Shown in pieces: positions 1,273 to 20,299 of a stretch of 64,000 nt of DNA. The notes under the pieces are model-generated. The model did no database searches, was not told where the DNA came from, and saw only the letters and a program-made list of their open reading frames with translations. A program made the translations under genes and the position numbers. The stretch is from positions 10,108 to 74,107 of the forward strand of contig JASFQB010000007.1 of the NCBI GenBank assembly GCA_050115675.1, given 5' to 3'. The DNA is from Candidatus Woesebacteria bacterium (GTDB taxonomy: Bacteria > Patescibacteriota > Saccharimonadia > Saccharimonadales > EFPC-124). Each line of letters begins with the position of its first letter. Position 1 is the stretch's first letter.

Positions 1273-1299
1273 CACAAGCGTGATAATCGTAAAATTAAC

Positions 1300-1322: not shown

Positions 1323-1327
1323 TTGCT

Positions 1328-2400: not shown

Positions 2401-2404
2401 ATCT

Positions 2405-2488
2405 TGGTACGCGAGAGAGGACTTGAACCTCCACGCCCGAAGGCACTAGCTCCTAAGGCTAGCGTGTCTACCATTCCACCACTCGCGC
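2405..2488 (-). tRNA. tRNA-Leu, anticodon UAG, type II (long variable arm), CCA encoded
   Basis: 84-nt cloverleaf on the minus strand. Acceptor GCGCGAG/CTCGCGT then A-CCA. Anticodon stem CTAGC/GCTAG with loop CU-UAG-GA. Variable arm TGCCTTCGGGCGT. T-arm GGAGG-TTCAAGT-CCTCT. Confidence 0.9.
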
Positions 2489-2571
2489 ATAAACACATGT
2501 TGTATACCGTTAGATCAGAACATAATTATTATAACTGATTTAAGGCAGTTTGCCAACAATAAAAAACAAGT

Positions 2572-3935: not shown

Positions 3936-3939
3936 ATTT

Positions 3940-5970
3940 TTAGTTTAGCGATGTTAGCTGTCTATAGCGGCTAACTCTTTTGTTTAACTCTTTATATTGT
4001 AGCAGATCAAAGCCATTTTTAAGTAGATCCTCTACGCATGCTCGTACACGTTTAATTTGTTTTGTATCTGCCAAATTCGCAACTTGTAAGTTTAAAGCGC
4101 CGTGCTGCATTCGGCCGTAAATTTCTCCCGGTCCACGCAGGCGCAGGTCTACTTCTGCTAGGTAAAAGCCATCTTGTGATTGTTCAAGTTCTAACAATCG
4201 CTCTGTAGGACGCTTACCGCTTGACGGAATTAAATAGCAATAGCTTTTTTGCGCTCCGCGTCCTACACGCCCTCTAAGCTGGTGAAGCTGAGCGAGTCCA
4301 AATCGTTCCGCACCCTCAATTAGCATGACGGTGGCGTTTGGTATGTCAACCCCAACCTCAATAACGGTGGTCGCAACCAAGATATCTACTTCGCCATTTT
4401 TAAATTTTTTCATAACACTATCTTTTTCGTCTGCTTTCATTTGGCCATACAGCATCGCTAAGCGTCGATGAGTAAAAACGGTCTTTATCAGTTGATCGTA
4501 CTCGGCTTTGACGCTTTTTTGCTCATTTTGCTCACTTTCCTCACCCACCAGTGGACATACAATATAAACTTGACGTCCTTGCTGAATCTGCTCGTCTACA
4601 AATTGGTGCACCTTCTTGCGCTCAAATGATGAGCATAACTTTGTATTTATTCCTTGTCTGCCAGCGGGCAATTCGTCTATTATTGAAATCTCTAACTCGC
4701 CATAAACCGTTAATTGAAGACTGCGTGGTATTGGTGTCGCGGTCATGCTAAGCAAGTGTGGCATAAGCTCACTCTTTTTTAGCAGTTGTGCGCGTTGTTC
4801 GACGCCAAATCTGTGCTGCTCGTCAATTACTACAAAACCAAGTTTTTTAAATTTGCTATCCGCTTGAATCAGGGCGTGTGTACCTACGGCAACGTCAATT
4901 TGACCATTGGCCAAGTTTTGTTGAAGGCATTTTTTTGCCTTTGATGTTAGTGATCCTGTTAGAAGTGTAATCCGTACCCCAAGTGGCTCTAGTAATGTAG
5001 CCAGAGTGTTTGCGTGCTGAGCGGCCAAAATTTCTGTGGGGGCCATCAGTGCTGTCTGGTAGCCAGATTTTACAGCCATATAGATTGCCATAGCTGCAAC
5101 TGCGGTTTTCCCGGAGCCTACATCACCTTGTAATAAACGATTCATTGGTTGCTCTTGCTCAAAATCTTGCAAAACTTCCCACGCAGATCGTTTTTGAGCG
5201 TCTGTCATCGTAAAAGGAAGCGATCTTATAAATTGCTTTGCATTTTTTGAATCAAAGGGTATTTTGTAGCCGCGCAACTTGGCGTTTTCGCCTTTATTTA
5301 GTTGAGCAGCCATTAAAAGTTCAAAAAGCTCTTCAAAAGCTAGACGCTCTCGTGCACGAGCAAGCTGATCATCAGAATCAGGAAAGTGCAACTGTAAAAG
5401 AGCTTGATTGATGCACAACAAGTTGTGTTGCTTAATAACTTTGTTCGGTAAAGTCTCTGGCAAGATTTGCATAAGTGGCAGTAGCTCGCGCACAATTTTA
5501 CGAATTTGTAGTGAAGAAATACCCGCTACCTGACGATACACTGGCACAATTTTGCCAGTGTTAACTGTAAAATCTGCGACCTTCTCGATTACAGGGTTGC
5601 TTAACAAAAAGCGGTTGCGCTGTAACTCATAGCTACCCGAGAAAAACGCTGTCGAGCCTGGTTTCAATTGATTAACTCGATATGGTTGATTGAACCAAAT
5701 TGCCCTAACTTTGCCTGTCTCGTCATCTAAAACTGCCTCGGTAATATGCAATCGCTTTATGTGCCTGCCGGTAATTGTTTCGATCTTAGCTTTTAGCGTT
5801 ATATTTCCTGGTTTGATGTTGGCAATTTTTGCTATTTTAGAAAAATCATCATAACGACGAGGTAAAAAATATATTAAATCGCGAACGGTGACCACATTCA
5901 GCTGTGCTAACTTTTCAGCCAAAGATTTCCCCACTCCTTTTATTTCTGTCACGGGTGATTGCAAGTTCAT
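3940..5970 (-). CDS. recG: ATP-dependent DNA helicase RecG
   Basis: Walker A GDVGSGKT, DEQHRFG (DEAH-type), helicase C motifs QLRGRVGRG, N-terminal wedge/OB region. ATG at 5970 preferred over TTG at 5973. Confidence 0.9.
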   Translation of the reverse strand: MNLQSPVTEIKGVGKSLAEKLAQLNVVTVRDLIYFLPRRYDDFSKIAKIANIKPGNITLKAKIETITGRHIKRLHITEAVLDDETGKVRAIWFNQPYRVNQLKPGSTAFFSGSYELQRNRFLLSNPVIEKVADFTVNTGKIVPVYRQVAGISSLQIRKIVRELLPLMQILPETLPNKVIKQHNLLCINQALLQLHFPDSDDQLARARERLAFEELFELLMAAQLNKGENAKLRGYKIPFDSKNAKQFIRSLPFTMTDAQKRSAWEVLQDFEQEQPMNRLLQGDVGSGKTAVAAMAIYMAVKSGYQTALMAPTEILAAQHANTLATLLEPLGVRITLLTGSLTSKAKKCLQQNLANGQIDVAVGTHALIQADSKFKKLGFVVIDEQHRFGVEQRAQLLKKSELMPHLLSMTATPIPRSLQLTVYGELEISIIDELPAGRQGINTKLCSSFERKKVHQFVDEQIQQGRQVYIVCPLVGEESEQNEQKSVKAEYDQLIKTVFTHRRLAMLYGQMKADEKDSVMKKFKNGEVDILVATTVIEVGVDIPNATVMLIEGAERFGLAQLHQLRGRVGRGAQKSYCYLIPSSGKRPTERLLELEQSQDGFYLAEVDLRLRGPGEIYGRMQHGALNLQVANLADTKQIKRVRACVEDLLKNGFDLLQYKELNKRVSRYRQLTSLN

Positions 5971-5978
5971 CAAATAAT

Positions 5979-5984
5979 ATTGTA
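5979..5984 (-). promoter_or_regulatory. -10 box TACAAT 8 nt from recG ATG (leaderless-type)
   Basis: Minus strand reads TACAAT-attatttg-ATG with no Shine-Dalgarno in between. Confidence 0.45.
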
Positions 5985-5997
5985 CACAATACAGTGC

Positions 5998-6036
5998 AAA
6001 AAAGCTGCATACGCCAGTTAAGCTAGCGTATGCAGC
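5998..6036 (-). terminator. Intrinsic terminator after small membrane-protein gene
   Basis: GCTGCATACGC-N11-GCGTATGCAGC (11-bp stem) followed on the minus strand by TTTTTT. Confidence 0.75.
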
Positions 6037-6046
6037 CTAGAATTGA

Positions 6047-6241
6047 TTAGCGTGGCCCGTAGTAAATTGTTAAAAGTGCGATCGACATAATTGCCACGGC
6101 GTAAAACACAAGCCCCATCAAAAATGCGTATACGTGTAACGCATAAGGGCCAAAACCAACACTTCCCCCTGCTTGGGTGATGCTATAGCTCGCCAAAAGC
6201 CCAAGCAGCATAGCAACCAAATTGGCGTCTGCACCCTGCAT
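6047..6241 (-). CDS. Small two-helix membrane protein
   Basis: 64 aa with two hydrophobic spans. GAGG 6 nt upstream of the ATG. Own terminator. Confidence 0.5.
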   Translation of the reverse strand: MQGADANLVAMLLGLLASYSITQAGGSVGFGPYALHVYAFLMGLVFYAVAIMSIALLTIYYGPR

Positions 6242-6359
6242 GTCATACCTCGATTCTGGTCATATCTTAGGTTTTTGAAACATCACTGCAGACTGCGAGG
6301 TGGACTGGTAGGCTACGGTATTATACTGTAAGCGTGGCAAAAAGTCTAGATTTCAGGCT

Positions 6360-7562
6360 TTAGCTTTCGATAAGACGCACAAAGTTGCGCTTTCCAACTT
6401 GCAAAATATCTTCGTGCTGAACTTTTACAACGTCGCTATCGACGCGACAACGGTTTATCTTAACTCCACCCTGCTTTATTAGTCGCATGGCCTGTGAATT
6501 GCTATCCGCAAGACCAGACTTAACAAGCAAATCAATAAGCTTTGCTTCGCCAGCATCAATTTTTAACGATTGTATTGCCGCAGTTGCCTCTCCTTTTGCC
6601 AGTGCGGCAGTTGCTTGTTTTGCCTCGTTCGCTAACTGTATTCCATGTACTAGCTTGGTAACTTCGTACGCCAGCGTTTTTTGAGCAGCTCTGCCTGCAG
6701 GGTTAGACTTAAATTCATTCAGCACATCTTCGATCTGTTGCCTTTCGAGTAGTGTGTAGACCTTAAGATATGTTTCTACGCCAGTGTCATCTGCGTTTAG
6801 CCAAAATTGGTAAAATTCAAAGGGCGAAGTTTTTTCTGCACAAAGCCATACAGCGCCTTCCTCGCTTTTGCCAAATTTTTTACCAGTAGCAGTATTTATA
6901 ATTAACGGACCTGTCCAGATATGAGCTTCTTTGCTGTCTATTTTTCTGATTAATTCAACGCCCGCAATGCTATTGCCCCATTGGTCTGCGCCAGCTAGCT
7001 GTAAAGTCACCTTGTGCGAACGAGAAAGATGTAAAAAATCGTAACCCTGAATTAACGAATAGCTAAATTCGGCATAGCTAATGCCTTTACCGCCCTTGCC
7101 AATTCTGGATTGTACAAATTCGCGATCAAGAAGTTGTGTCATAGAAAAATGTTTACCAACGTCTCTTAAAAACTGAAGGTAGCTAATGTTTTTAAACCAG
7201 TCATAATTATCCACAATTTCAAATTGTTCGCCTTCAAAAATTCGCCTGTACTCGTTTGCAATTGCTTGTTTGTTTTTTGATATTTCGTCTAGCGTTTTTA
7301 ACTGACGTTCATCTGTTTTGCCATCGGGGTCGCCAATCATACCGGTCGCCCCGCCAACTAAAAGCACAGCTCTATGGCCATGTCTAATAAAATGGCGGAC
7401 CATCATTGCCATGGCTAAATTGCCAACTGTCATAGAATTTGCACTAGGATCAACTCCCCAGTAAAAAGTTATTGGGTCGCCATCTAACTGGCCAAGGTCT
7501 TTAAAGGTAGTTTGATTTACAAAGCCTCGCCAGCTCAGTTCTTCAGAAAGTTTTGTTATCAT
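6360..7562 (-). CDS. tyrS: Tyrosine--tRNA ligase
   Basis: Class I signatures (PSANSMTVGNL HIGH-like, KFGKS KMSKS-like). C-terminal S4 RNA-binding domain (GLADSNSQAMRLIKQGGVKIN). Confidence 0.9.
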   Translation of the reverse strand: MITKLSEELSWRGFVNQTTFKDLGQLDGDPITFYWGVDPSANSMTVGNLAMAMMVRHFIRHGHRAVLLVGGATGMIGDPDGKTDERQLKTLDEISKNKQAIANEYRRIFEGEQFEIVDNYDWFKNISYLQFLRDVGKHFSMTQLLDREFVQSRIGKGGKGISYAEFSYSLIQGYDFLHLSRSHKVTLQLAGADQWGNSIAGVELIRKIDSKEAHIWTGPLIINTATGKKFGKSEEGAVWLCAEKTSPFEFYQFWLNADDTGVETYLKVYTLLERQQIEDVLNEFKSNPAGRAAQKTLAYEVTKLVHGIQLANEAKQATAALAKGEATAAIQSLKIDAGEAKLIDLLVKSGLADSNSQAMRLIKQGGVKINRCRVDSDVVKVQHEDILQVGKRNFVRLIES

Positions 7563-7754
7563 ATTAAATACTCAGGTTATTTTTATGTATGCGCATTAAG
7601 ATATATCTGTTGCTGCGTATATAAGTAATCTGTTAGTTGATGTGCAATTGACATATTTTTGCATATTTTACCTGTCGCTATTATATCATATGATTACTTT
7701 GCTTTCATTTTTATGATGAATGCAACAAAATACTGTTTTGTAGTAGTTTGCGAG

Positions 7755-7763
7755 TGTTATAAT
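7755..7763 (+). promoter_or_regulatory. Extended -10 promoter (TGTTATAAT) for the PBP gene
   Basis: TGT-TATAAT about 40 nt upstream of the ATG at 7804. AAGGAG and AAGAGGA in the leader. Confidence 0.45.
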
Positions 7764-7803
7764 AAGTTAAAGATCTGCTAATGCTTAAGGAGTAACAAGA
7801 GGA

Positions 7804-10449
7804 ATGAAGCGCCGTTCAAAGGGCTTAAGTGTATACAACAATCTGTCCGCTCAGCTCAAAAAGAAACGTGACGAACGAGCAAGACAAAAAGCTGAATATC
7901 TTGCCACGTTGCCAAAGAATCCTTTTAAACGTTTTCTTTATAGAATGCACCCTAAGCGCGTGCTAAGGTACTGGTTTAGTAAAAAAGGCGCATTAATGGC
8001 GTTAAAACTTGCAGGCATAGGCCTTGTAATTGTGGCAATTTTTATTGCTGCGCTGTTTTCGTATTACCGTCGTGAGCTTGACTCCTTAAAACCCAGCGAA
8101 ATTAGCAAGCGTGTTCAGTCTACTGTCACAAAATATTACGATCGCAATGACGTTTTATTGTGGGAAGACAAAGGCACAGACAACTATAAGCTGGTGGTTG
8201 ATTCCGTAGATATTAACGACAACATGAAGAACGCCACAGTAGCTATCGAGGACAAAGACTTCTACAAGCATAGTGGTATTAGTATTACTGGCATTATGAG
8301 AGCAACGATTAGCAATGTGACAGGCGGTGGAAATGTTCAGGGTGCCTCCACCTTAACTCAGCAACTGGTAAAAAACGTATTCTTTGCAAACGACGCTGAA
8401 GAAAATCGCTTAAATGTCTCCAGAAAAATTAAAGAGATGATTTTGGCGGTTGAAGTTGAGCGAATGTACAATAAGGACCAGATCTTAACACTCTATCTTA
8501 ACGAGGTTCCTTACGGTGGAAGAAGAAACGGTGTAGAATCTGCTGCACAAACATATTTTGGTAAATCAGCAAAAGACCTTACCATAGCCGAGGCAGCCTT
8601 GGTTGCTGCGATTCCTCAAAATCCACCCTATTACAACCCATATTATATTGATGGAAACAAAGATCTTGTAATAAGACAGCAAATGGTCATTGATGCCATG
8701 CAAGAGCAAGGCTACATCACACAAGAAGAAGCTGATGAAGCTAAAAAAGTAGCCATTTTAGATACAATAAAACCCGAACTGTCTGGCACAGAAGACATTA
8801 AAGCTCCTCACTTTGTTTTGACTGTTCGCAGCGAACTTGAAAAAGAATTTGGTCAACAGTTTGTTAGAAGCGGTGGATTAACTGTAAAAACAACATTAGA
8901 TTACCGCATGCAGCAGATTGCAGAGCAAGCGGTTAGCGAAAGCTATTCTAAGTACTTTGAAAGAGGGCTAGCAAATAACGCTGACAACATGGCATTTACG
9001 GCGGTAGATGTAGATACTGGGCAAATAGTAGCCATGGTTGGTAGCTACGACTTTAACAACAAAGAGTATGGTGCTACAAACGCTGCAACTGCGCTCTTAC
9101 AGCCAGGGTCAAGTATTAAGGTTTTTGACTACTCTGCCTTGATGAAAGAAAGAGAAGGGCAGAACTTTGGCGCAGGCAGCATCTTGGCCGACGAAGATAT
9201 AAGCAGTATATACAAGAGCAAGTTGTCAAACTACGATGGCAAATTCTTTGGCTCTATAAGCATACGGGAAGCGCTGGCCAACTCACGCAACCCGCCTGCT
9301 GTTAAAGCTGCGTATATTGCAGGTATTGATAACGTGATACAGCTTGCCAGGGATATGGGCGACCATTCATACTGCGTCGATGAGGACTACGGCTTATCTG
9401 CAGCTATTGGTGGATGTCAGGTTCGCGAAGTAGAACATGTTAATGCTTATGCATCTCTGGCTCGTGGCGGAGTTTATAAGCAAGAGTCTTACATACTTGA
9501 GGTAAAAAATTCACAAGACCAAATTTTAAAACAATGGAAGGATGAATCAAAGCAGATTCTTGACCCACAAATACCTTACATAATTAGTGATATCTTAAGT
9601 GATAAAAATGCTCGAGCGCGAGTGTTTGGATACAACCCACTCGGTATGGTAATTCCAGGCGTAAAAACCGCTACGAAAACGGGCACAACAGACAACGGAC
9701 AAGGTAAGGCCAAAGACAATTGGATGATGAGCTACTCTACCGAAATTTCTGCTGGTATTTGGGTTGGCAGGCACGATGGAGGTGCACTGACCGGTATCTC
9801 TACGGCAGTTCCGGGTTATGTAATTAGTCAGTTTATGACTAAAGTCCACCAAGACATTTTAGCTCCAGATGGAAAATGGAGCGCAGACGACTGGTTTCAG
9901 CAGCCTGACGGAGTTCAAAAACTAACGGTTAATGGAAAAACGGACATATACCCGTCTTGGTATAAGAAGCCAAGTAATTCTGCTGGCACAAAGATGACCT
10001 TTGACAAGGTGTCAAAAAAGAAAGCCACAGACTGTACACCAGAAGCTGCCAGAATTGAAATAACAGTTCAAGAGGTTGAGGACCCAGTAACAAAAAAGAA
10101 GAGCTACAGTAATACTGAGGGCTATGACCCAACAGCTGACGACGATGCGCACAAATGCGATGATGTAAAACCATTTGTATCGTCAATTACAGCGACTAAG
10201 ATAGAAAACGGTAAGTACAGGATTTCTGTCGCAGTAAATAAGGGCACCTTTGATCTTCAGTCGCTAGACGTAGCTGCTGATGGCACGAGTGTCATATCTC
10301 AGGGCATATCGTCTGCGGGTACTTTTGAAGTCGATTATACGTTTACTAGCGCAGGCGACAAGACAATAACGGCAAGAGTTGTCGATGCTGGCTACTACGA
10401 CGCAACCACCACGAAGACTGTCAATGTTAAGTTGACTGGTAGTAACTAG
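7804..10449 (+). CDS. Class A penicillin-binding protein (PBP1A-type transglycosylase/transpeptidase) with C-terminal Ig-like extension
   Basis: GT51 motifs EDKDFYKHSGI, GASTLTQQ, RKIKEM. Transpeptidase SSIK, SRN, KTGT. N-terminal TM anchor. Confidence 0.9.
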   Translation: MKRRSKGLSVYNNLSAQLKKKRDERARQKAEYLATLPKNPFKRFLYRMHPKRVLRYWFSKKGALMALKLAGIGLVIVAIFIAALFSYYRRELDSLKPSEISKRVQSTVTKYYDRNDVLLWEDKGTDNYKLVVDSVDINDNMKNATVAIEDKDFYKHSGISITGIMRATISNVTGGGNVQGASTLTQQLVKNVFFANDAEENRLNVSRKIKEMILAVEVERMYNKDQILTLYLNEVPYGGRRNGVESAAQTYFGKSAKDLTIAEAALVAAIPQNPPYYNPYYIDGNKDLVIRQQMVIDAMQEQGYITQEEADEAKKVAILDTIKPELSGTEDIKAPHFVLTVRSELEKEFGQQFVRSGGLTVKTTLDYRMQQIAEQAVSESYSKYFERGLANNADNMAFTAVDVDTGQIVAMVGSYDFNNKEYGATNAATALLQPGSSIKVFDYSALMKEREGQNFGAGSILADEDISSIYKSKLSNYDGKFFGSISIREALANSRNPPAVKAAYIAGIDNVIQLARDMGDHSYCVDEDYGLSAAIGGCQVREVEHVNAYASLARGGVYKQESYILEVKNSQDQILKQWKDESKQILDPQIPYIISDILSDKNARARVFGYNPLGMVIPGVKTATKTGTTDNGQGKAKDNWMMSYSTEISAGIWVGRHDGGALTGISTAVPGYVISQFMTKVHQDILAPDGKWSADDWFQQPDGVQKLTVNGKTDIYPSWYKKPSNSAGTKMTFDKVSKKKATDCTPEAARIEITVQEVEDPVTKKKSYSNTEGYDPTADDDAHKCDDVKPFVSSITATKIENGKYRISVAVNKGTFDLQSLDVAADGTSVISQGISSAGTFEVDYTFTSAGDKTITARVVDAGYYDATTTKTVNVKLTGSN

Positions 10450-10460
10450 GTAGACTGAAG

Positions 10461-10498
10461 CAATATAAAAACTGGCGAGCTCGCCAGTTTTTATATTG
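10461..10498. terminator. Bidirectional intrinsic terminator (perfect 38-nt palindrome)
   Basis: CAATATAAAAACTGGCGAG|CTCGCCAGTTTTTATATTG between convergent stops at 10449 (+) and 10512 (-). GC core flanked by A5 and T5. Confidence 0.85.
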
Positions 10499-10511: not shown

Positions 10512-11468
10512 TTAATTTTCGTTGCGTCTTTCGATTGCTGCAAAAAGTGAATCTTCGGGAGTTTTGCGTCTGTTTTGGCGTGCACGTGGAGATACCTGTT
10601 GTTTGTTTGTTGGCTCTTTTTTATCCTGATGCTGCTGTCTATTCTCGGGTCGTGTATTGTTAGAGCGCTTTTTGCGTGCAGGCTTGTTTTGAGCCTGAGG
10701 CTGTGCGTGATAGACATTTTGAACCTGAAGCTGCTGCTGATTTTTTGATTTGCTAGCCCTATTCTGCTGACTAATCTTGCTCTCAATAATTGCAGTCTCT
10801 TTTTTTGCTGGCTTTTCCATGAGCTGTTTTCTGCCACTGTTCTCTGGTAATACGGCAAACATCATCTTGCCTGCCTGAGTTTGTAACATGCGGCTAAACT
10901 CTACAAGAATTCTTTGACCAAGCTTGCTGCCAGCTTTCTCTACAACAACCATGGTGCCGTCTTCAAGATAGCCCACACCTTGGGTTTTATCCTGTCCTAA
11001 CTGAGTAATTTTAAGCTCAACTCTTTCGCCTGGCAGTCTTCGTGGTCGCAGTGCCTGTGCTAACTCGTTGACGTTCAGCACTACAACACCTTCGATTTGA
11101 GCGACTTTATTTAGATTGTAATCTGTAGTGTAAAGCATTCCACCATATTGCTTAGCAAGCGCAATAAGCTTGTCGTCTACTTCTTTAATATTTTTATATT
11201 GCTCTCTGGCAATTGTAACTTTTGTGCGACGCAAATCTTGAAGGTCGCGAATTACGTCTAACCCATAGCGCGCACGTTCACGCTTGTGGCTGTCGCCATG
11301 GTCAGCCAAAAACTGTAATTCTGCAATTATAAATTGTGGTATAACAATGTTTTGTGGTATAAAACCAGCTTTTGCTATGTCGATTATTCGGGCGTCAATC
11401 AAAGCGCAGGTATCTAATATTAAAACCTGTTCACCACTTCGATCGCCACGTTTTTTAAATGGATTCAT
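10512..11468 (-). CDS. PIN/TRAM domain protein (YacL-like) with long basic Q/K/R-rich tail
   Basis: N-terminal PIN signature ILDTCALIDARI. Central TRAM-like beta region (GERVELKITQLGQDKTQGVGYLEDGTMVVV). Low-complexity C-terminus. Confidence 0.75.
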   Translation of the reverse strand: MNPFKKRGDRSGEQVLILDTCALIDARIIDIAKAGFIPQNIVIPQFIIAELQFLADHGDSHKRERARYGLDVIRDLQDLRRTKVTIAREQYKNIKEVDDKLIALAKQYGGMLYTTDYNLNKVAQIEGVVVLNVNELAQALRPRRLPGERVELKITQLGQDKTQGVGYLEDGTMVVVEKAGSKLGQRILVEFSRMLQTQAGKMMFAVLPENSGRKQLMEKPAKKETAIIESKISQQNRASKSKNQQQLQVQNVYHAQPQAQNKPARKKRSNNTRPENRQQHQDKKEPTNKQQVSPRARQNRRKTPEDSLFAAIERRNEN

Positions 11469-11499
11469 ATTACTATTTTACTCCTTTAACGTCGTACTC

Positions 11500-12852
11500 C
11501 TATGCTTTCTTTAAATAAGTATTTAATGCCTCTTTTAGAGATTGCACGGGTCTTATAAAGACGTGTTTTTTTGTAGATTTTGGCCCAATTACGTATTTGA
11601 AGCCAAGTTTATTTGCTTCGGATGCTCGACGATCACTGTTGGTGACCGACCTTACCTCTCCGCTTAGCCCAACCTCGCCAAATACTACGGCAGTTGGGTC
11701 TAATTGCATTTGTTTTGCTGCTGAAGCTATAGCCATGCATACGGCTAAGTCAGCAGCTGGATCTTGCAGCTTTATACCGCCAACAACGTTGATGTAAATA
11801 TCGCTATCAGATAAGTTTAACTTTGTCCGTCGCTCCAGGACAGCCACAAGCACGTTTAGGCGATTTAAATCAAAACCTGATGCCGTGCGTTTAGGATACC
11901 CGAAATATGATTTATTTACAAGTGCCTGTATCTCTACAAGCAAAGGACGGTTGCCTTCCATGGTAGCAAAAACCACAGACCCATCAGATGAGATACGTTC
12001 TTCTAGCAGTGCTGCAGACGGATTAAGTACTGGTTTTAGGCCAGTATCATCCATCTCAAAGATTCCAGCTTCATCTGTTGACCCATAGCGATTTTTTATT
12101 GCTCGCAAAACTTTAAAGCCGCCGTATCTGTCACCTTCAAGATTGACCACAACGTCTACCATGTGTTCTAAAATTTTTGGACCAGCAATACTCCCCTCTT
12201 TAGTCACGTGTCCAACCATAATTAGCGCTGTATCTGTGGCCTTTGCAGCTTGAGTTAGCAAGTTTGATGAGTTGGTAATTTGCCCAACACTACCTGCCGC
12301 TGAAGCAATATCATTCATTGTTAATGTTTGAATTGAATCAACGATTACCAATTTATATCCACACCCTTTTATTGTAGCCGCAATGTCGTCTGCGGAGGTA
12401 GACGATGCAAGATAAAGCTCATCATGCTCTACGCCCAACCTGTCTGACCGAACCTTCACCTGGCCGGCTGACTCTTCTCCACTCACGTATAGCACTTTGT
12501 TTGTGGCAGAGATAGCTTGTGCAACTTGCATTAGCAACGTAGACTTGCCAATTCCGGGTTGGCCAGCAATTAAAATGACACTGGCCGGAACAATTCCTCC
12601 GCCCAAAACTGCGTCCATGTCAGCAATTCTTGTGCTAATTCTGCCGCGACTACTACTCGGAGTAACCTTAGTGATCGACTGCGACTGTAGGGACCTGCCC
12701 TTACTGCTAGCGACTACGTTTGTAGCGCTTTGTTCTGTAAATTGCTCTACAAAACTATTCCAGGCACCACAGCCATCACAACGACCGCTCCACTTAGATT
12801 TGATCACTCCACATTGCTGGCAAACAAACTGTACTGCTGTCTTTTTGGCCAT
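11500..12852 (-). CDS. radA: DNA repair protein RadA/Sms
   Basis: N-terminal zinc ribbon CQQCG...CDGCGAW, Walker A GQPGIGKST, KNRYG motif, C-terminal Lon-like domain. Confidence 0.9.
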   Translation of the reverse strand: MAKKTAVQFVCQQCGVIKSKWSGRCDGCGAWNSFVEQFTEQSATNVVASSKGRSLQSQSITKVTPSSSRGRISTRIADMDAVLGGGIVPASVILIAGQPGIGKSTLLMQVAQAISATNKVLYVSGEESAGQVKVRSDRLGVEHDELYLASSTSADDIAATIKGCGYKLVIVDSIQTLTMNDIASAAGSVGQITNSSNLLTQAAKATDTALIMVGHVTKEGSIAGPKILEHMVDVVVNLEGDRYGGFKVLRAIKNRYGSTDEAGIFEMDDTGLKPVLNPSAALLEERISSDGSVVFATMEGNRPLLVEIQALVNKSYFGYPKRTASGFDLNRLNVLVAVLERRTKLNLSDSDIYINVVGGIKLQDPAADLAVCMAIASAAKQMQLDPTAVVFGEVGLSGEVRSVTNSDRRASEANKLGFKYVIGPKSTKKHVFIRPVQSLKEALNTYLKKA

Positions 12853-12859
12853 ATTAGTA

Positions 12860-12868
12860 AGTATAACA
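12860..12868 (-). promoter_or_regulatory. Extended -10 TGTTATACT 7 nt from radA ATG (leaderless-type)
   Basis: Minus strand reads TGT-TATACT-tactaat-ATG with no Shine-Dalgarno. Confidence 0.5.
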
Positions 12869-12966
12869 GACGCAACCTCGATAATTGCTATTGGGCTTTA
12901 TATAATTGCATCTATGACGGTTCCATGCTAAAGTATCATGGTTCGCTCTCATGCTTGGAGGAAGTC

Positions 12967-13518
12967 GTGTCAGTGCTAGTACGTACAAGCAACATCGTTT
13001 CTGATGTTAGCGTTGGTAATGGTACTTTTAGCTTTCAGGCCATCTCAGCAATTGATAACGGAGATGATTTTTTATTGATTCTGGATATGGCCAGCAGACC
13101 TACAGTCGAGCGCACTTTAAATCTTGGCTTGATGGAGTCAAGGCTTTATGACTACATGGTGCATTTTAGTAAGTCTCGACGATCTGGAGGTAATCCTGGC
13201 GACTGCTTTACGTTCGCAGTCTATCTAGCAACGGGCATAACGCCTATCATTCCTGCGCTAAATACCATCAAGCACGATGGATTGAGTGGACGCCTACGCT
13301 GGAGGACGGAACTTGGAGCTACCTATGTACATCTAATAAATGTACCTAGCAGCGATGACACCTACGAGATAGTTCATGCAATGGTTGGACTGGGCGGAAA
13401 ACAAGTTATAGCAAAATGGGGAATGGGCGATAATGAAATTGGCATCGGCACAATTAAAGATTCCATGCGATGCTACGGAGGACTGGTGTACAAAGTAAAT
13501 AATCTACACTTTGCTTGA
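12967..13518 (+). CDS. Hypothetical protein (Cys/His-containing, possible papain-like fold)
   Basis: GTG at 12967 is preceded by GGAGGA (ATG at 12925 is an alternative). TATAAT at 12901-12906 upstream. The upstream part of the track ORF overlaps radA antisense and is discounted. Confidence 0.5.
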   Translation: MSVLVRTSNIVSDVSVGNGTFSFQAISAIDNGDDFLLILDMASRPTVERTLNLGLMESRLYDYMVHFSKSRRSGGNPGDCFTFAVYLATGITPIIPALNTIKHDGLSGRLRWRTELGATYVHLINVPSSDDTYEIVHAMVGLGGKQVIAKWGMGDNEIGIGTIKDSMRCYGGLVYKVNNLHFA

Positions 13519-13563: not shown

Positions 13564-14574
13564 CTATGTTTGGTTTACTTCGTTATATTTGCTATCGAGG
13601 CTTTGGTTTAGCTTATTTTGCGCCGTAGCTTCATTGTTACGCTCAATGACCAACGAATTGTGCTTATCAATAAGATTTTGCGTTTCTTCTACGAGCGCGT
13701 TGTATGCTCGAATTCTAGCATTATAGACTGGCACTGCCGCATTGTACTCGTCTACCTTTTGCTTTTGCCACAAATCGTTAAGACGGGCTGATTCAGATTG
13801 AATTATGGCATATTCGGAATCAAGAGTTGCATTATTTTTGTCGATCTGAGACTTGAAGTTTGTAAGTTGCTCATCCATTTGCGCTATGCGGTTTTCTGAC
13901 TCTGTGAACACGTTTTCGTAGCTTTCTGCTAAGGTCACAACCTTGTTACGATCATCAAAATATGTTTTATAGTAGCTTTCTAGTTCAGGGGATAAATCAC
14001 GATACTCTGCACCAAAAATTGAGTGCATCTCGTTGTAAATCTCCCCGGGCTCTGTTTTGTTATACAAGGATATTAGCTCAAGCAGGCGCTCGTCGGTGGT
14101 AACACTCATTTGCGCATTAATTAGCTGATCAATTTCCTCACGCTCTGCCTTACTTAGCCTCTCATATGCGGCATGAAGCATCTCGTGCGCACCAGTTACT
14201 TCTTCTACGCCGCTAAGTTTTTCGTCGGTAACATCAAAAAGATATATTTTTTGCAGCTTGTAACAACCTAAAACAATACTTTCTTCGCTATTGTTTTGGC
14301 AGTCTTGGTTAAACGCTGCTGCAGATTCTACAACTGGTGTTGACGCATACCACAACTCTCTTCCACGCGAAGACATGCCCGTACTGTCTGCAATTTGGAC
14401 AATTTGTGCAGAGGGCGGGTATATTTGGATTCTCCACCAGTCCAGTACAATTTGCCAATTTAGAGCAAACCAAATAATTGCCCCAAAAAATGACAGCAAA
14501 AAAGTAAATTTTATTACTCGCGAGCCAAAACTTGACCCTGTGCTAACCCGATACTCTTTCAAAAGCCAACTCAC
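13564..14574 (-). CDS. Membrane-anchored HExxH protein with long C-terminal coiled coil (putative zinc metallopeptidase)
   Basis: N-terminal TM (FTFLLSFFGAIIWFAL), TGAHEMLHAAY HExxH motif, heptad-like Q/N/E-rich C-terminal third. Start overlaps the clpC 3' end by 32 nt. Confidence 0.6.
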   Translation of the reverse strand: MSWLLKEYRVSTGSSFGSRVIKFTFLLSFFGAIIWFALNWQIVLDWWRIQIYPPSAQIVQIADSTGMSSRGRELWYASTPVVESAAAFNQDCQNNSEESIVLGCYKLQKIYLFDVTDEKLSGVEEVTGAHEMLHAAYERLSKAEREEIDQLINAQMSVTTDERLLELISLYNKTEPGEIYNEMHSIFGAEYRDLSPELESYYKTYFDDRNKVVTLAESYENVFTESENRIAQMDEQLTNFKSQIDKNNATLDSEYAIIQSESARLNDLWQKQKVDEYNAAVPVYNARIRAYNALVEETQNLIDKHNSLVIERNNEATAQNKLNQSLDSKYNEVNQT

Positions 14575-17017
14575 CCCTTTTAGCTGTTACACAAATTATA
14601 TCGCCTTTAACGTATTGTTGCGAGAGTAAACCGTCTGCAAGTTTGTCTTCAATTAAATCTTGAATAGTGCGACGCAGCGGCCGAACCCCATTTTGCGCAT
14701 CATAACCCTTTTGAATTAGTAGTTTTTTAGCGCTTTGCTGCATTTTTATATCAATTCCGCGTTTATATAATCTGACCGACAGTTTTTTGATTTGCAGATC
14801 TAAAATTACGGCGACTTCTTTTTTGGTTAGAGCTTTAAACACAATTATCTTGTCAAAACGGTTGATAAGCTCTGGCCGCATAAAGTCTTTCAAGGCCTTC
14901 ATAGAAGCTTCTTGATTTTGCTTATGTACTTCATCAAGCTGGTCTAGGTCGTCTTTTGTGCTGGCATGAAACCCAAGTGAAGCCTCGTGTTGCATTTTTG
15001 TTGCACCCAAGTTGCTGGTTAAAATTACAATCGTGTTAGAAAAATCAACTTTACGGCCTTTTGCGTCTGTTAATTCGCCGTCTTCTAATATTTGAAGGAG
15101 CATATTCATTACTTCTGGGTGGGCTTTTTCTATCTCGTCAAAGAGCACTAAGCTGTATGGTTTTCGACGAATTTTATCTGTAAGCTGGTTACCATCTTCG
15201 TATCCCACAAAACCTGCGGGCGCGCCAATCAAGCGTGCAGACATATGTCTATCGGCAAATTCGCTCATATCAATTTTAATCATAGCGTCTGGCGATCCTA
15301 AAACTTCGCTGGCGAGCACCCGCGCAAGTTCAGTTTTACCTACACCAGTTGGCCCCATAAATATGAACGAGCCAATCGGGCGTTTGCCATCAGAGATGCC
15401 AGATCTGTTGCGCCTTATAGCACGGCTTACAGCTGTAATGGCATCAATTTGACCGATCACGTGCTGTGACAAATGTTTTTCTAGGTTTAAAAGTTGCTTT
15501 GCTTCTGCTTTTATGACTTTTTGTACAGGTACGCCAGTCATCGACGCAACCGTATTGGCGATGTCGTCGCTGGTAATCTTTATGTGTTGCTCGTTAGTTT
15601 TTTTGTCGCGCAGTTCACTTATCTTGGAGTTAATTTGGCTCATCCTTGTCTTATATTGTGCTGCGCGTTCGTAATCTTGAGACTCAACTGCTAATTCCAT
15701 TCGCTCGGTTACGGTTTTTAGTTCGTGTGTTAACTTGCGTGCTTCTAGAGGAGTTTTACCACGCTCTACTTTAACTTGCGAGGCAGCCTCGTCTAAAACG
15801 TCAAATGCCTTGTCTGGCATAAAACGATCGTTAATATAACGCTTTGCTAAATTTGCAACATCTACTAAAATATCGTCTTCTAAAACTACGCCGTGGTGAT
15901 CCTCGTAGTATTTTTTAAGACCACGAAGTATGGCAATTGTTTCTTTAACTGTTGGCTCTGGTACAACAACGGTTTGGAAACGGCGTTCTAGAGCTGCATC
16001 TTTTTCTATGTGTTTACGGTACTCGTCTAGCGTTGTGGCGCCAATTATACGTACATTTCCGCGCGCCAGTGCTGGCTTTAGCATGTTTGCTGCATCGATG
16101 GCGCCTTCTGCGGCGCCTGCGCCTACAAGCAGGTGCAGTTCATCGATAAATACAATACAGTTTTTATCGCCAGAAATTTCGTCTATCATTTTTTTGAGTC
16201 GCTCTTCAAACTCTCCGCGATATTTTGTACCGGCAATCATTCCTGCTAAGTCAAGCATTACCACACGAGCATCCAATAAGCTATCTGGAACTTCTTCAGA
16301 TGCAATTTTTTGGGCCAGCCCCTCAACAATAGCAGTTTTTCCTACCCCTGGCTCACCAATTAAAACAGGGTTATTTTTGTTACGACGTCCCAGAATTGTA
16401 ACAATTCTTTTAATCTGTACTTCGCGACCAATTATTGGGTCGAGTGTGCCCATTTTGGCTTTTTCGGTTAGGTCGCTGCCATATTTACCTAGCATGCCAT
16501 GACTTTTTTGCTGTCGCTTTTGACCTGTGCCTTCGCTAGCCTGATAATCTTGCTGCTGTCTATTTAAGTATTGTTCTATTTCGGCCGTTAGATCGTCTGT
16601 ATCAATGCGCATATCTCTAAGTAATACCGTGGCGCGTGCATTTTTTTGACTCAAAATACTGTATAAAATGTGCTCTGTGCCGCAATAATCTTGGTCAAAC
16701 TCCTGTGCAACGTCCCAGCTTAGGCGCAAAGTTAATTTAGCTGTATCGCTTAAGCCTTTTGAGCCAGTGCTTACCACAAGCGCGCGAGGGGTCAAGTTTA
16801 AGGCAAGTTGTGCTCGATCAAGCGTTACTCCAGCACCAGTTAGCATTTTAGATCCGATAGATGTGGTTTGGCTTAAAACACCCAACAATAGGTGTTCTGT
16901 GCCAATGTATGCAGACCCCAAATTTCGCGCAATGGCGTCTGCGTGTTGTAGGCTTGCTTTTGCATTATCGGTAAGTCGGCTCAAAAATTCGTTAAAATCA
17001 CCGTAAGGAGGCATCAT
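14543..17017 (-). CDS. clpC: ATP-dependent Clp protease ATP-binding subunit ClpC
   Basis: Two Clp_N repeats. Two AAA+ modules (GEPGVGKT, GPTGVGKT). UVR-like linker (ESQDYERAAQYKTRM) typical of ClpC rather than ClpB. Confidence 0.85.
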   Translation of the reverse strand: MMPPYGDFNEFLSRLTDNAKASLQHADAIARNLGSAYIGTEHLLLGVLSQTTSIGSKMLTGAGVTLDRAQLALNLTPRALVVSTGSKGLSDTAKLTLRLSWDVAQEFDQDYCGTEHILYSILSQKNARATVLLRDMRIDTDDLTAEIEQYLNRQQQDYQASEGTGQKRQQKSHGMLGKYGSDLTEKAKMGTLDPIIGREVQIKRIVTILGRRNKNNPVLIGEPGVGKTAIVEGLAQKIASEEVPDSLLDARVVMLDLAGMIAGTKYRGEFEERLKKMIDEISGDKNCIVFIDELHLLVGAGAAEGAIDAANMLKPALARGNVRIIGATTLDEYRKHIEKDAALERRFQTVVVPEPTVKETIAILRGLKKYYEDHHGVVLEDDILVDVANLAKRYINDRFMPDKAFDVLDEAASQVKVERGKTPLEARKLTHELKTVTERMELAVESQDYERAAQYKTRMSQINSKISELRDKKTNEQHIKITSDDIANTVASMTGVPVQKVIKAEAKQLLNLEKHLSQHVIGQIDAITAVSRAIRRNRSGISDGKRPIGSFIFMGPTGVGKTELARVLASEVLGSPDAMIKIDMSEFADRHMSARLIGAPAGFVGYEDGNQLTDKIRRKPYSLVLFDEIEKAHPEVMNMLLQILEDGELTDAKGRKVDFSNTIVILTSNLGATKMQHEASLGFHASTKDDLDQLDEVHKQNQEASMKALKDFMRPELINRFDKIIVFKALTKKEVAVILDLQIKKLSVRLYKRGIDIKMQQSAKKLLIQKGYDAQNGVRPLRRTIQDLIEDKLADGLLSQQYVKGDIICVTAKRGELAFERVSG

Positions 17018-17047: not shown

Positions 17048-17075
17048 ATTATAGTATAAAAAATTAGCACTCCAA
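17048..17075 (-). promoter_or_regulatory. Candidate clpC promoter TTGGAG-N16-TATAAT
   Basis: -10 TATAAT at 17053-17048. The -35 at 17075-17070 falls inside the CIRCE repeat. Confidence 0.45.
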
Positions 17076-17090
17076 GTGCAAGAGTGCTAA
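17064..17090. promoter_or_regulatory. CIRCE operator (HrcA binding site), perfect consensus
   Basis: TTAGCACTC-caagtgcaa-GAGTGCTAA, identical to TTAGCACTC-N9-GAGTGCTAA. Confidence 0.85.
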
Positions 17091-17106
17091 AAAACCATTT
17101 ACTAAC

Positions 17107-17135
17107 TTGACGACAAAATTTTATCTATGTAAAAT
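17107..17135 (+). promoter_or_regulatory. Sigma70-type promoter TTGACG-N17-TAAAAT
   Basis: Good -35/-10 with 17-nt spacer about 38 nt upstream of the ATG at 17173. Confidence 0.55.
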
Positions 17136-17172: not shown

Positions 17173-17736
17173 ATGTCTAGTATGATCACATTTACGGTTG
17201 TTCCTGCGCGCCAGAGCTATCTCTGCCATAGGGAGCTATGCGTCATGGGCTTTAGCATGGTTACCGGATTTTACGTCCACGAAAAAGGCCAGCAAGTAAG
17301 CATCCGGCATCCAAAATACGCCAAACATGTCGTGCCAAATGCCACCTGTGAGCAAAGACGATATGAAGTTGCCTCTGCAATGCGTAGGCGACTAGTAGAG
17401 TTTGCTACTACGTACCTTGCGGACGCTAGCAGCGAACAGCCATACGACAACGACTCATTTGCAAATTACATGACTGAAGGTGGGTTAATGACAATTCCAG
17501 ACGACGAGCGCGACTCAGCAGTGCTGACGGAGGAAGGTGCCAGAATCAGAAAAGCAGAGCTTTATGTTGTTGCAGAAGTCGATAGTGGACGCACTTATAA
17601 GCATATCAGCCTCGGCAATCGGCTGGTCCTAAACATCTTCGGTCGAAATGGCGTTCTTGGTATTGTGAACATTGACGAACTTATGCTTATGTACAGAAGC
17701 AATTTAAAATGTCTTCTATTTTCCGCAGGTGCCTAG
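17173..17736 (+). CDS. Hypothetical protein
   Basis: 187-aa ORF with its own promoter and terminator. Spot G+C slightly above neighbours. No recognisable motif. Confidence 0.5.
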   Translation: MSSMITFTVVPARQSYLCHRELCVMGFSMVTGFYVHEKGQQVSIRHPKYAKHVVPNATCEQRRYEVASAMRRRLVEFATTYLADASSEQPYDNDSFANYMTEGGLMTIPDDERDSAVLTEEGARIRKAELYVVAEVDSGRTYKHISLGNRLVLNIFGRNGVLGIVNIDELMLMYRSNLKCLLFSAGA

Positions 17737-17773: not shown

Positions 17774-17800
17774 ACGGGCTCTTATCTTTTAAGAGCCCGT
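17774..17800. terminator. Hairpin terminator between convergent genes
   Basis: ACGGGCTCTT-atctttt-AAGAGCCCGT, 10-bp stem. Confidence 0.7.
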
Positions 17801-17831: not shown

Positions 17832-18959
17832 TTACTCTTGAACTTCGTCGCTTTCTTCAATTGCACTCATTAAAGAATCTTCAACATTCTTTTTTGGTTT
17901 TGGCTCTGATTTTTGCTCTTTAATTGTCGCAATATCAAGCTCGTAGCCTACTAGCTGAGATGCTAAGCGAACGTTTTGTCCGCCACGGCCAATCGCAATA
18001 GAAAGTTGATCTTCTGCAACGCTAACTTTGGCATGCTTTGCATCTTCGTCAATCTCAATCTTTAATACAGCTGCAGGACTTAAGGCATTGGTAATAAACT
18101 GCTTGATATCGTCGCTGTAGGTAATAATATCGATTTTTTCTTGATCGCCGATCTCGTTCATAACAGCCTGAACGCGTGTACCATGACCGCCCACAAAAGT
18201 ACCAACTGGGTCAACACCGGGAACGGTAGAAAGCACAGCAAGCTTGGTTCTTTTGCCAGCTTCGCGTGCAATTGCCTTAATTTCTACTGCGCCATTTTCC
18301 ATTTCTGGAACTTCCTGACGGAACAAGTATTCAATAAATGCCTCGTTTGCACGACTCAAAATTAGTTGAGGGCCGCGGTTGCCGCGCTCTACGTCTTTTA
18401 GGTAGACTCTAACCCTAGAACCAACGGTGTAATATTCGCCAGGGATTTGCTCGCTTAAAGGAATAATTCCAACAGCTTTGCCAATTTCTACACGCACAAC
18501 TCGTGGCTCAACGCGCTGAACGGCACCAACAATAACCGTGCCAATTTTGTCTTCAAACTCTTCCATAACAACTTCGCGCTCTGCTTCGCGTAGTTTTTGC
18601 AAAATAACCTGTTTTGCAGTTTGCGCAGCAACGCGGCCAAAAGTTTTGGGATGATCAACAACTTCTACTTCGCCGTCAAGTTCTATTTCTGGGTTAATTT
18701 TTTTGGCGTCTTCTAGGCTAATTTCGAAAGTTGGCTCGATAACTTCTTTTACAACTTCTTTGGTTACATAAACGCTAACTTCGCCTGTGCGAGGATTCAT
18801 TTCGGCGCGAACTTCTTGATCTCGATCACCAAAGTCACGGCGGTAGGCGGCAGCTATTGCTTGCTCGATAATTTCGTGAACCATGTCTTCTGGTAAGTTT
18901 TTTTCGTCTGCAATCTGCTTAAGCGCAAGGGCTAATTGTTTTAGATTTATGTCTTGCAT
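17832..18959 (-). CDS. nusA: Transcription termination/antitermination factor NusA
   Basis: NusA N-terminal domain, S1 (GTVIVGAVQRVEPRVVRVEIG) and two KH domains (IAIGRGGQNVRLASQL). ATG at 18959 has AAGAAAGG upstream. The track start at 19031 lies upstream of the predicted promoter. Confidence 0.9.
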   Translation of the reverse strand: MQDINLKQLALALKQIADEKNLPEDMVHEIIEQAIAAAYRRDFGDRDQEVRAEMNPRTGEVSVYVTKEVVKEVIEPTFEISLEDAKKINPEIELDGEVEVVDHPKTFGRVAAQTAKQVILQKLREAEREVVMEEFEDKIGTVIVGAVQRVEPRVVRVEIGKAVGIIPLSEQIPGEYYTVGSRVRVYLKDVERGNRGPQLILSRANEAFIEYLFRQEVPEMENGAVEIKAIAREAGKRTKLAVLSTVPGVDPVGTFVGGHGTRVQAVMNEIGDQEKIDIITYSDDIKQFITNALSPAAVLKIEIDEDAKHAKVSVAEDQLSIAIGRGGQNVRLASQLVGYELDIATIKEQKSEPKPKKNVEDSLMSAIEESDEVQE

Positions 18960-19020
18960 CTTTAACCTTTCTTGATTTGTTAGTAAAAAATCCGACCAAT
19001 CGGCCGGAATAACTGCTTGT

Positions 19021-19049
19021 ATTTTATGCAATAATTACAATTTTGTCAA
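19021..19049 (-). promoter_or_regulatory. nusA promoter TTGACA-N17-TAAAAT
   Basis: Consensus -35 and near-consensus -10 read on the minus strand, immediately after the upstream terminator. Confidence 0.6.
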
Positions 19050-19101: not shown

Positions 19102-19635
19102 TCAACTCAACAGCAAATCCACAAAAGAAAGTTGCGCTCTACTACGGTACAGAGATGTATCCACAGAAGATAGCACACGTCTACACCCGAAGCCACTTGT
19201 GAGATTGGCAAATGACTCCTGAAATGCACCGTTCAAAAGAATCAGCCCGCCACATTTACAACACGCAATTACGTTAACATCGTTTAGCCCACTATTATAC
19301 ATGGGCGCGTAACAAACTGGGCACGTAAGCTGTGCAAGCGAAACGCCTGGAACGTTGACATTTTTATGTGCCTGCATTAAAGCAAAAGCGCTTTGATCGG
19401 GTGATGTAGGAACAGTAACTCGCTGTTTAAATCCAGCCCTGCCAAGAAGTACGTTGACTGTGCGCTGGTAATCACCAAGCATAAAATGATACTTAGAACA
19501 TCTCTGGTTGCAACAAACTCTGAGTTTGCAGTGGTGTTGACCGTGCTCTTCTTCAACAATGATTTCATCACTACTACAGACAGCACAGCTCGAGCGGCTA
19601 AGTTGCCATGATGAACTTGATGGTTGGCAGTTCAT
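19102..19635 (-). CDS. Cys-rich protein, degenerate paralog of the neighbouring double zinc-ribbon protein
   Basis: Two CxxC...C(x)C modules (CAVCSS...CCNQRC; CPVCYAPM...CCKCGG) and a shared C-terminal SFVDLLL motif. AAGGAG SD. Own promoter TTGACA-N16-TAAACT (19671-19698). Confidence 0.55.
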   Translation of the reverse strand: MNCQPSSSSWQLSRSSCAVCSSDEIIVEEEHGQHHCKLRVCCNQRCSKYHFMLGDYQRTVNVLLGRAGFKQRVTVPTSPDQSAFALMQAHKNVNVPGVSLAQLTCPVCYAPMYNSGLNDVNVIACCKCGGLILLNGAFQESFANLTSGFGCRRVLSSVDTSLYRSRAQLSFVDLLLS

Positions 19636-19747: not shown

Positions 19748-20299
19748 TTAATAACGGCCAAGAAGCATATCCAAGAAGCTTCTGTTATGCCCCTGATGAC
19801 GATATTGATTGACGTTTGGATTAGCCAAGCCAAGCGAAAAACCACGGCGACTTGCAATATATGCAAAAACTTGCTGAAACTCCCCTCCGTCAAAGAACAT
19901 ACCCCAGCAATTGTGACAAGTGTCTACTTCGACGCCGTTTTCTTTAGTCTCGTACATCTGCCCATTACAGCGCGGGCAAATGACTGAACGACGAGGCCCA
20001 CGAGAATGAAGAATTCCAAACACCTCGGCCAAAAGCTGCTGAGCCTGGCCCAGCGCCTGTGGCACAGGGATTTGCTGCGCAGCGAATCCGGTTGCACGCA
20101 AAATTGCATTTACGGTTGCTTGGAACTCGCGAAAATCAAAAAAGTATGCACCACACTGATGATTTGTGCAAACGTCAATCTTCACACCACTTTCTGGCTC
20201 TGTAACTTCCGTCATAAAACACCTGCAACGCGGGCAAACAAGCTGCTGCTGAGCTGGCTGATATCCAGTATTTTGCGCATAACCGCCGTAAGGCTGCAT
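19748..20299 (-). CDS. Double TFIIB-type zinc-ribbon protein (zf-TFIIB-like repeat x2)
   Basis: CPRCRCFM...IDVCTNHQCGAYFFDFREF and CPRCNGQM...VDTCHNCWGMFFDGGEF match the CPxC...C..CxGxWxDxGE pattern. AAGGGGAG SD. Confidence 0.65.
   Translation of the reverse strand: MQPYGGYAQNTGYQPAQQQLVCPRCRCFMTEVTEPESGVKIDVCTNHQCGAYFFDFREFQATVNAILRATGFAAQQIPVPQALGQAQQLLAEVFGILHSRGPRRSVICPRCNGQMYETKENGVEVDTCHNCWGMFFDGGEFQQVFAYIASRRGFSLGLANPNVNQYRHQGHNRSFLDMLLGRY

Follow-up and report, generated by a model that had tools for sequence, protein, structure and literature searches.

The clpC gene of a Candidatus Woesebacteria assembly (GCA_050115675.1) is preceded by a perfect copy of the controlling inverted repeat of chaperone expression (CIRCE), the operator of the repressor HrcA, and this copy is very probably a functional HrcA operator. 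The site lies in a stretch of 64,000 nucleotides from contig JASFQB010000007.1, the whole of which we call the window; coordinates are those of the window unless a locus number is given. In our reading, to which we assign a probability of roughly 0.8, the repeat functions as an HrcA operator that lies nested within the sigma-70 promoter of clpC, and one short HrcA governs both the chaperones and the ClpCP protease. The case draws on the site itself and its conservation among relatives, on a second such site at clpP in the same genome, and on hrcA genes of the same phylum that stand behind the same operator.

The element, TTAGCACTCCAAGTGCAAGAGTGCTAA at 17064-17090, has no mismatch to the CIRCE consensus TTAGCACTC-N9-GAGTGCTAA; its arms and spacer read TTAGCACTC-CAAGTGCAA-GAGTGCTAA, a 9-bp inverted repeat with a gap of exactly 9 nt, and on the clpC (minus) strand the left arm occupies 17090-17082, the spacer 17081-17073 and the right arm 17072-17064. 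The clpC start codon is at 17017, leaving a gap of 46 nt. No other match to CIRCE, even with up to three mismatches, occurs in the window, where shuffled sequences give an expectation of 0.03 per 64 kb; for a perfect CIRCE, the chance expectation from the base composition of the window is ~1e-6 in 64-81 kb. An earlier note on this DNA, made from the letters alone, had reported an exact CIRCE about 45 nt 5′ of clpC, and that claim stands, with the match exact and unique in the window. Its sequence, its position and the lineage in which it occurs all identify the element as a bona fide CIRCE.

The upstream regions of clpC in relatives, a comparison that the earlier note had put forward as a check, retain the element. 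We surveyed 78 clpC loci from species-representative genomes, in which the nearest ClpC relatives (55-76% identity) belong to metagenome-assembled genomes (MAGs) labelled Candidatus Saccharibacteria, Saccharimonadales or Patescibacteria. Upstream sequence could be read for 45 Saccharibacteria-like loci, and in 41 of these a CIRCE with no more than three mismatches lies 21-184 nt 5′ of clpC, the chance rate at this stringency being ~2e-4 per 400 nt. Two others (L037, 737-763; L038, 1427-1453) carry the CIRCE and a promoter upstream of nusA, which abuts clpC there, an arrangement that implies a nusA-clpC operon under the operator in these two genomes. Outside this group, 24 clpC loci from Chloroflexota, Gemmatimonadota, Clostridia and other phyla were all without the element. 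When 42 loci are anchored on CIRCE, both arms are near-invariant, at ~2 bits per position, with the flanks at ~0, and such variation as is seen takes the symmetric forms usual for CIRCE, CTAGCACTC...GAGTGCTAG and TTGGCACTC...GAGTGCCAA. Such a pattern is the phylogenetic footprint expected of a sequence-specific binding site, beyond that of a mere hairpin. The surrounding order is conserved as well: nusA, which in relatives directly precedes the operator, then the CIRCE/promoter, then clpC, then a gene that encodes 332 amino acids in the window.

Two observations on taxonomy arose from this survey. The MAG under study carries the label Candidatus Woesebacteria, whereas its close sequence relatives are all labelled Saccharibacteria or Saccharimonadales; the cautious designation is a Patescibacteria genome, from an ultra-small bacterium, with Saccharibacteria as its relatives in sequence. 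Contigs of several relatives come from bins named Acidoferrum (L004), Burkholderiaceae (L013), Nomurabacteria (L029) and Dechloromonas (L071), and these are probably mis-binned or mislabelled.

The operator and the clpC promoter are closely interleaved. Read on the clpC strand, the left arm is followed by TTGCAC (17081-17076) within the spacer and, 17 nt on, by TATACT (17058-17053), which begins 5 nt past the right arm; these hexamers are the probable -35 and -10 elements of clpC, and the right arm fills most of the gap between them. At this spacer position TTGCAy is shared by L001, L003 and L044, all close relatives, and TATACT is kept in L001, L003, L004 and L044. In the 42 aligned loci, TTGMM falls at spacer position 1-3 in 36: the spacer opens with TTGACx or TTGCAx in 25, and another 11 have the motif displaced by 1-2 nt. 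A TAnnnT element (TATACT, TATAAT or TATTAT) follows the embedded -35 after 15-19 nt, mostly 16-18, likewise in 36 of the 42. Four loci (L022, L023, L057 and L074) have no TTG in the spacer, and in these a TAATAT-like -10 overlaps the right arm.

The earlier note had assigned the clpC promoter to a different pair of hexamers, TTGGAG (17075-17070)-N16-TATAAT (17053-17048), that is, minus strand 17048-17075. Both hexamers exist, but the pair is not conserved: L001, L003 and L044 are without the second -10 (TATAAT) that it needs. A generic promoter scan called neither candidate, because both -35 hexamers match TTGACA at only three of six positions, and the assignment therefore rests on conservation across relatives, which favors TTGCAC-N17-TATACT. 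The clpC promoter is thus probably this one, with the TTGGAG-based proposal off by 5-6 nt. The associated argument, that the -35 lies inside the repeat and that a bound repressor would occlude the promoter, gains from the correction. Given a -35 in the operator spacer and the right arm in the -35/-10 gap, a bound dimer would have to exclude RNA polymerase; and since the left arm lies 5′ of the -35, the CIRCE would not be transcribed as a whole and would act as a DNA operator only.

An inverted repeat at this position could also be mainly an intrinsic terminator or insulator against read-through from nusA into clpC, to which the CIRCE match would be incidental or secondary. On the clpC strand it can form a 10-bp stem (folding free energy about -14.6 kcal/mol, z = -4) followed by TTTTTT, which the scanner called terminator-like, and in many relatives nusA ends just before the palindrome. 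The T-run, however, is confined to the close clade of the window, the right arm being followed elsewhere by, for example, CAATGA, AAGACG or CACTAG, and the arms are conserved to the canonical CIRCE letters, more than base-pairing demands. The nusA gene of the window (17832-19031, minus strand) has a stronger terminator of its own, a bidirectional terminator-like hairpin at 17774-17800 (unstranded; 11-bp stem with six GC pairs), and an open reading frame (ORF) on the opposite strand, whose end converges with that of nusA on this hairpin, lies between nusA and the CIRCE. The same palindrome sequence, moreover, stands ahead of hrcA, dnaK, dnaJ and groES, as described below. We regard the terminator reading as quite improbable. 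Termination as the conserved function is rejected on the grounds that the U-run is not kept across relatives, which leaves at most a secondary role in some lineages.

The opposite-strand ORF just mentioned (17173-17736, plus strand) raises the question of whether the operator is bidirectional and also, or mainly, controls this divergent gene. The earlier note had raised co-regulation of this gene from a divergent promoter, and the pieces are present: a good sigma-70-like site, TTGACG-N17-TAAAAT, lies at 17107-17135 on the plus strand, 16 nt from the CIRCE and facing the ORF, and the palindrome is symmetric. The ORF too exists as claimed, an orphan without a Pfam, NCBIfam or PHROGs match and with only itself as a match among 5.8 billion proteins; its start is less firm, with the longest frame giving 187 amino acids and gene callers preferring 184 from 17182 or 163 from 17245. 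The promoter is a consensus match only, at 10 of 12 positions, and promoter-like sites in this stretch occur at shuffle level (two found vs 1.9 expected). Further, the CIRCE would lie at about -45 to -70 of the orphan promoter, 5′ of its -35, so that occlusion is not expected. The co-regulation proposal was rejected on conservation: nearly all relatives that keep the CIRCE in its clpC register are without the orphan and have nusA directly 5′ of the CIRCE, one relative (L002) having two weakly similar ORFs at the orphan's position. The register of the operator is fixed to the clpC promoter regardless of the upstream neighbor, and the distribution of the orphan marks it as an insertion, specific to the lineage, that separates nusA from the clpC operator. 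Control of the orphan is accordingly unlikely in our view.

A second perfect CIRCE is found at clpP in the same genome. Logan contigs of SRR11713588 add 8.7 kb to the left end of the window (L079) and 8.3 kb to its right end (L223), for 81 kb in total, or ~8-10% of a genome of roughly 1 Mb. L079 is 100% identical to window positions 1-10489 and, beyond the left end of the window, carries hisS, tig, two small ORFs and clpP (Pfam CLP_protease, 1e-80). The clpP upstream sequence reads TTAGCACTC-TTGAACTTA-GAGTGCTAA-TTTTT-TATACT, then 7 nt, then ATG (L079, 17200-17244), ~6.7 kb outside window position 1; its -35 is embedded in the operator, and its design is identical to that of the clpC site. With so short an interval to the start codon, the clpP mRNA is probably leaderless. 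The 81 kb contain exactly two CIRCE elements, those at clpC and clpP, and no isolated half-sites, and CIRCE-clpP was seen again in metagenome contigs with the order hisS-tig-clpP. The second perfect CIRCE lends further support to the idea that the heat-shock regulon has collapsed onto HrcA.

The same modules occur widely in metagenomes. A scan for an exact pattern, a CIRCE whose spacer begins with TTGMM, returned at least 120 loci (L080-L199). Among the matches listed, 87 have a first gene after the module that could be classified: hrcA (34), dnaK (16), clpC (15), dnaJ (9), clpP (7) and groES/groEL (6), proportions that are biased by the derivation of the pattern from clpC promoters, the list of targets still being informative. 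The hrcA modules among the matches listed usually lead into hrcA-grpE-dnaK-dnaJ. Two further modules outside the 87 are followed by hsp20 (L185, L116), and one (L084, 753-779) precedes an RpoH-like sigma factor in an unrelated organism, probably a proteobacterium. Within the lineage, then, CIRCE is found ahead of hrcA-grpE-dnaK, dnaK, dnaJ and groESL.

Solo dnaK genes have CIRCE in duplicate, where one copy surrounds the -35 and another, of the TTGGCACTC or TTGGCAATC type, lies just past the -10; double CIRCE at dnaK was observed in L080, L101, L102, L106, L127 and L198, and in L108, L110, L118, L143, L166, L175, L182 and L199. Many loci place the start codon just 17-21 nt past the CIRCE right arm (6-8 nt past the -10), examples being L119, L139, L177 and L194 for clpP, L103, L120 and L130 for dnaJ, and L091, L095 and L113 for hrcA. 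This spacing suggests that leaderless mRNAs are common for the CIRCE regulon in these lineages.

The HrcA proteins encoded behind these modules are short, mostly 226-245 amino acids (e.g. L171, L202, L200 and L214), with about 236 typical. They score 177-191 bits against TIGR00331, below the cutoff of 197 for this full-length equivalog. A search with one short HrcA returned 8000 relatives; the best 120 of the 8000 (P0001-P0120) have 189-257 amino acids, mostly 235-252, and the Pfam HrcA domain (PF01628), many with a winged-helix domain (PF03444) as well. NCBI labels among the members include "Candidatus Saccharibacteria bacterium" and "Patescibacteria group bacterium", with a product name of "transcriptional regulator" only, a bare name probably due to the score below the curated cutoff. 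The genes lie in the context lepA-adk-hrcA-grpE-dnaK-dnaJ or similar, and one NCBI record with a short hrcA, DATKGW01, is outside the assemblies of the clpC survey. CIRCE stands ahead of the short hrcA genes, in L202 and L204 as a perfect copy with TTGACA in the spacer, and autoregulation is thereby indicated. The winged-helix of a short HrcA aligns to Thermotoga maritima HrcA (PDB 1STZ, residues 16-92) with E = 5e-19, consistent with an unchanged DNA specificity.

The regulators that control clpC elsewhere were also sought. No heptad repeat of the form GGTCAAA-NAN-GGTCAAA lies near clpC or clpP, and the matches elsewhere, with 2-3 mismatches, are at chance level. No ctsR, mcsA or mcsB was found upstream of clpC in the window or in relatives, where nusA holds that place, and a probe sequence for CtsR picked out no such ORF in the window or the 78 loci. 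More broadly, motif and phmmer searches with probes of this kind found no hrcA, ctsR, groEL, groES or dnaK in the window or the 78 clpC loci; the same probe set did detect its genes in the metagenome loci. The earlier note had seen no CtsR-type GGTCAAA direct repeat at clpC and had suggested a heat-shock regulon collapsed onto HrcA. The scan agrees on the first point and extends it to clpP; the second is supported by the conservation of CIRCE at clpC in relatives, by the perfect CIRCE at clpP, by the CIRCE-linked short hrcA in the phylum and by the lack of CtsR in these searches.

Several observations weigh against our reading of a single short HrcA in charge of the chaperones and ClpCP. The link of CIRCE to clpC is not universal, as the element is missing from two of the 45 Saccharibacteria-like loci, L026 and L049. 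Relative to full-length HrcAs, the short proteins are missing one contiguous internal block of ~100 residues, which may correspond roughly to the inserted dimerizing domain of 1STZ, and an AlphaFold model of a short HrcA, with a predicted local distance difference test score (pLDDT) of 55, is too poor to interpret as to how the protein would dimerize on the palindrome. The 81 kb of genome read contain no hrcA, lepA or adk that would make the link within the same genome. Finally, two co-culture transcriptomes of the cultivated relative TM7x, taken under non-heat conditions, show most chaperones higher at initial host encounter and 'clpB' and clpP (TM7x_03020, TM7x_02110) higher in stable symbiosis or recovery (bioRxiv 10.1101/2022.03.25.485537; PMC10768705). 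This pattern argues against simple lock-step co-regulation there; if TM7x has CIRCE at 'clpB' and clpP, extra regulatory inputs must exist.

The hrcA gene not seen in the 81 kb, together with the loss of CIRCE from L026 and L049, would also fit a genome from which HrcA has been lost, with the sites at clpC and clpP persisting as relics that now serve as constitutive promoter parts. Yet both sites are perfect (18/18), and unbound operators decay, as described for Spiroplasma (PMC5138195). Moreover, short hrcA is widespread in the phylum, and the portion inspected is the small fraction of the genome given above. Relic sites strike us as highly improbable, and we infer that hrcA is present in this particular genome.

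Under our preferred reading of a promoter-nested HrcA operator, regulation of clpC would proceed as follows. An HrcA dimer bound to the two arms, just 5′ of the -35 and within the -35/-10 gap, with TTGCAC in the 9-nt spacer between them, would keep RNA polymerase from the promoter. By analogy with characterized HrcA systems, unfolded proteins would titrate the chaperone that keeps HrcA active, repression would be relieved, and clpC would be switched on along with the overlapping gene for the 332-residue HExxH protein. The short HrcA would hold, over chaperones and ClpCP alike, the place that CtsR/McsAB or ClgR holds elsewhere.

The product of the target gene (14543-17017, minus strand) is an 824-residue ClpC-type AAA+ unfoldase (Hsp100). 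It contains PF02861 twice (Clp_N), PF00004, PF07724, PF17871, PF10431 (D2-small) and a UVR motif (PF02151) at residues 432-462, and so has the ClpC architecture, in which Clp_N repeats and a pair of AAA+ modules go with a short middle domain of the UVR type. At motif level, LGF at residues 681-683 corresponds to a ClpP-docking-type (I/L/V)G(F/L) loop in D2, with [LF]GF found in six relatives, which is consistent with a ClpCP protease.

The gene that follows (13564-14562, minus strand) overlaps the clpC stop with its start by 20 nt and is, on account of this overlap, probably co-transcribed with clpC; it is retained 3′ of clpC in ~30 relatives. Its 332-residue product belongs to an unannotated family of 1,834 members without a Pfam domain, in which the HEMLH (HExxH) motif is invariant and an NEMHS block is conserved. 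In a confidently predicted structure (pLDDT 91), a helix at the N terminus is joined by a small alpha/beta domain, where the HExxH motif is located, and by a long hairpin of antiparallel coiled coil at the C terminus; structure and sequence searches with the protein gave matches to the coiled coil only. Candidate roles for it are those of a zinc metallopeptidase or of a ClpC partner controlled by the same operator.

Comparison with known systems shows what is shared and what is distinct. Operator sequence and geometry, TTAGCACTC-N9-GAGTGCTAA, are identical to those of the class I regulon of Bacillus subtilis and other bacteria; in both, hrcA heads a grpE-dnaK(-dnaJ) operon with its own operator, and the winged-helix is conserved. 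The targets here, in contrast, add clpC and clpP, which in Firmicutes belong to class III (CtsR). The B. subtilis CIRCE is placed 3′ of the transcription start, whereas here the -35 is inside the operator spacer and the operator is predicted to be untranscribed; the repressor here is also ~100 amino acids shorter. The Mollicutes compared here use a full-length HrcA. In other respects the Mollicutes HrcA regulon (dnaK operon, clpB and lon) is alike, with a reduced genome, HrcA as sole stress regulator, AAA+ quality-control targets and tandem CIRCE at dnaK (PMC5138195), to be compared with the double CIRCE at dnaK in L080, L101 and L106. The two differ in phylum and in that the targets here are ClpC and ClpP rather than ClpB and Lon.

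The classical HrcA regulon consists of groESL and the dnaK operon (PMC3842655), and in several proteobacterial groups groESL is its sole constant member (PMC545781). For clpP there is a precedent of CIRCE/HrcA action in Streptococcus salivarius, where the gene is stated to be under CtsR and HrcA (Chastanet & Msadek 2003, J Bacteriol 185:683, as cited in PMC3842655); as that citation gives it, HrcA acts there jointly with CtsR, while here HrcA apparently acts alone and clpC is included. In the searchable literature we found no link of HrcA or CIRCE to Saccharibacteria or Patescibacteria and, among the papers retrieved, no description of clpC as an HrcA target. The system is best described as a phylum-wide variant of the known HrcA/CIRCE regulon, with Mollicutes clpB/lon and S. 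salivarius clpP as partial precedents. New are a target set that takes in both ClpCP components without CtsR, the promoter-nested operator and the truncated repressor, in a phylum whose regulation is essentially undescribed.

The neighborhood of clpC invites a comparison with Firmicutes, in which the gene order is clpC-radA-disA-yacL and clpC belongs to a CtsR/McsA/McsB operon. The target gene is the same, and radA and a PIN-TRAM (yacL-like) gene are located downstream on the clpC strand of the window as well (10512-12852, minus strand). The differences are that nusA or the orphan stands upstream in place of ctsR/mcsA/mcsB, that the heptad repeat is missing, and that an opposite-strand ORF (12730-13518) splits the clpC unit from radA. 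Upstream of nusA, two adjacent, paralogous-looking ORFs of ~180 codons (19102-19635 and 19748-20299, minus strand) each encode a TFIIB-type zinc ribbon (PF13453). At its left edge (1-1272, plus strand) the window begins inside a gene for a 999-residue TrbL-family (type IV secretion) protein.

Together, these results lead us to a broader proposal, which we offer tentatively and rate at slightly less than an even chance: that a minimal HrcA without the ~100-residue segment is the single master regulator of proteostasis in Saccharibacteria, and probably in wider Patescibacteria. Its regulon would comprise DnaK/DnaJ/GrpE, GroESL, Hsp20, ClpCP and the HExxH/coiled-coil protein, controlled through promoter-nested operators, often of leaderless mRNAs, and it would replace CtsR/McsAB, ClgR and sigma-32. 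The prediction is testable, given that genetic tools exist for cultivated Saccharibacteria, as reported in PMC10633639.

Almost nothing is known of gene regulation in Patescibacteria (the candidate phyla radiation, CPR), and the finding offers an entry point to their stress regulation: a concrete, testable regulon for a large uncultivated radiation, with one operator, one repressor and defined targets that include ClpCP. It yields an annotation rule, by which stress promoters in these genomes can be recognized from a CIRCE that encloses the -35, and it points to the previously uncharacterized HExxH protein as one that likely belongs to the proteostasis network. After the Mollicutes, it would be a second independent case in which genome reduction funnels protein quality control onto HrcA.

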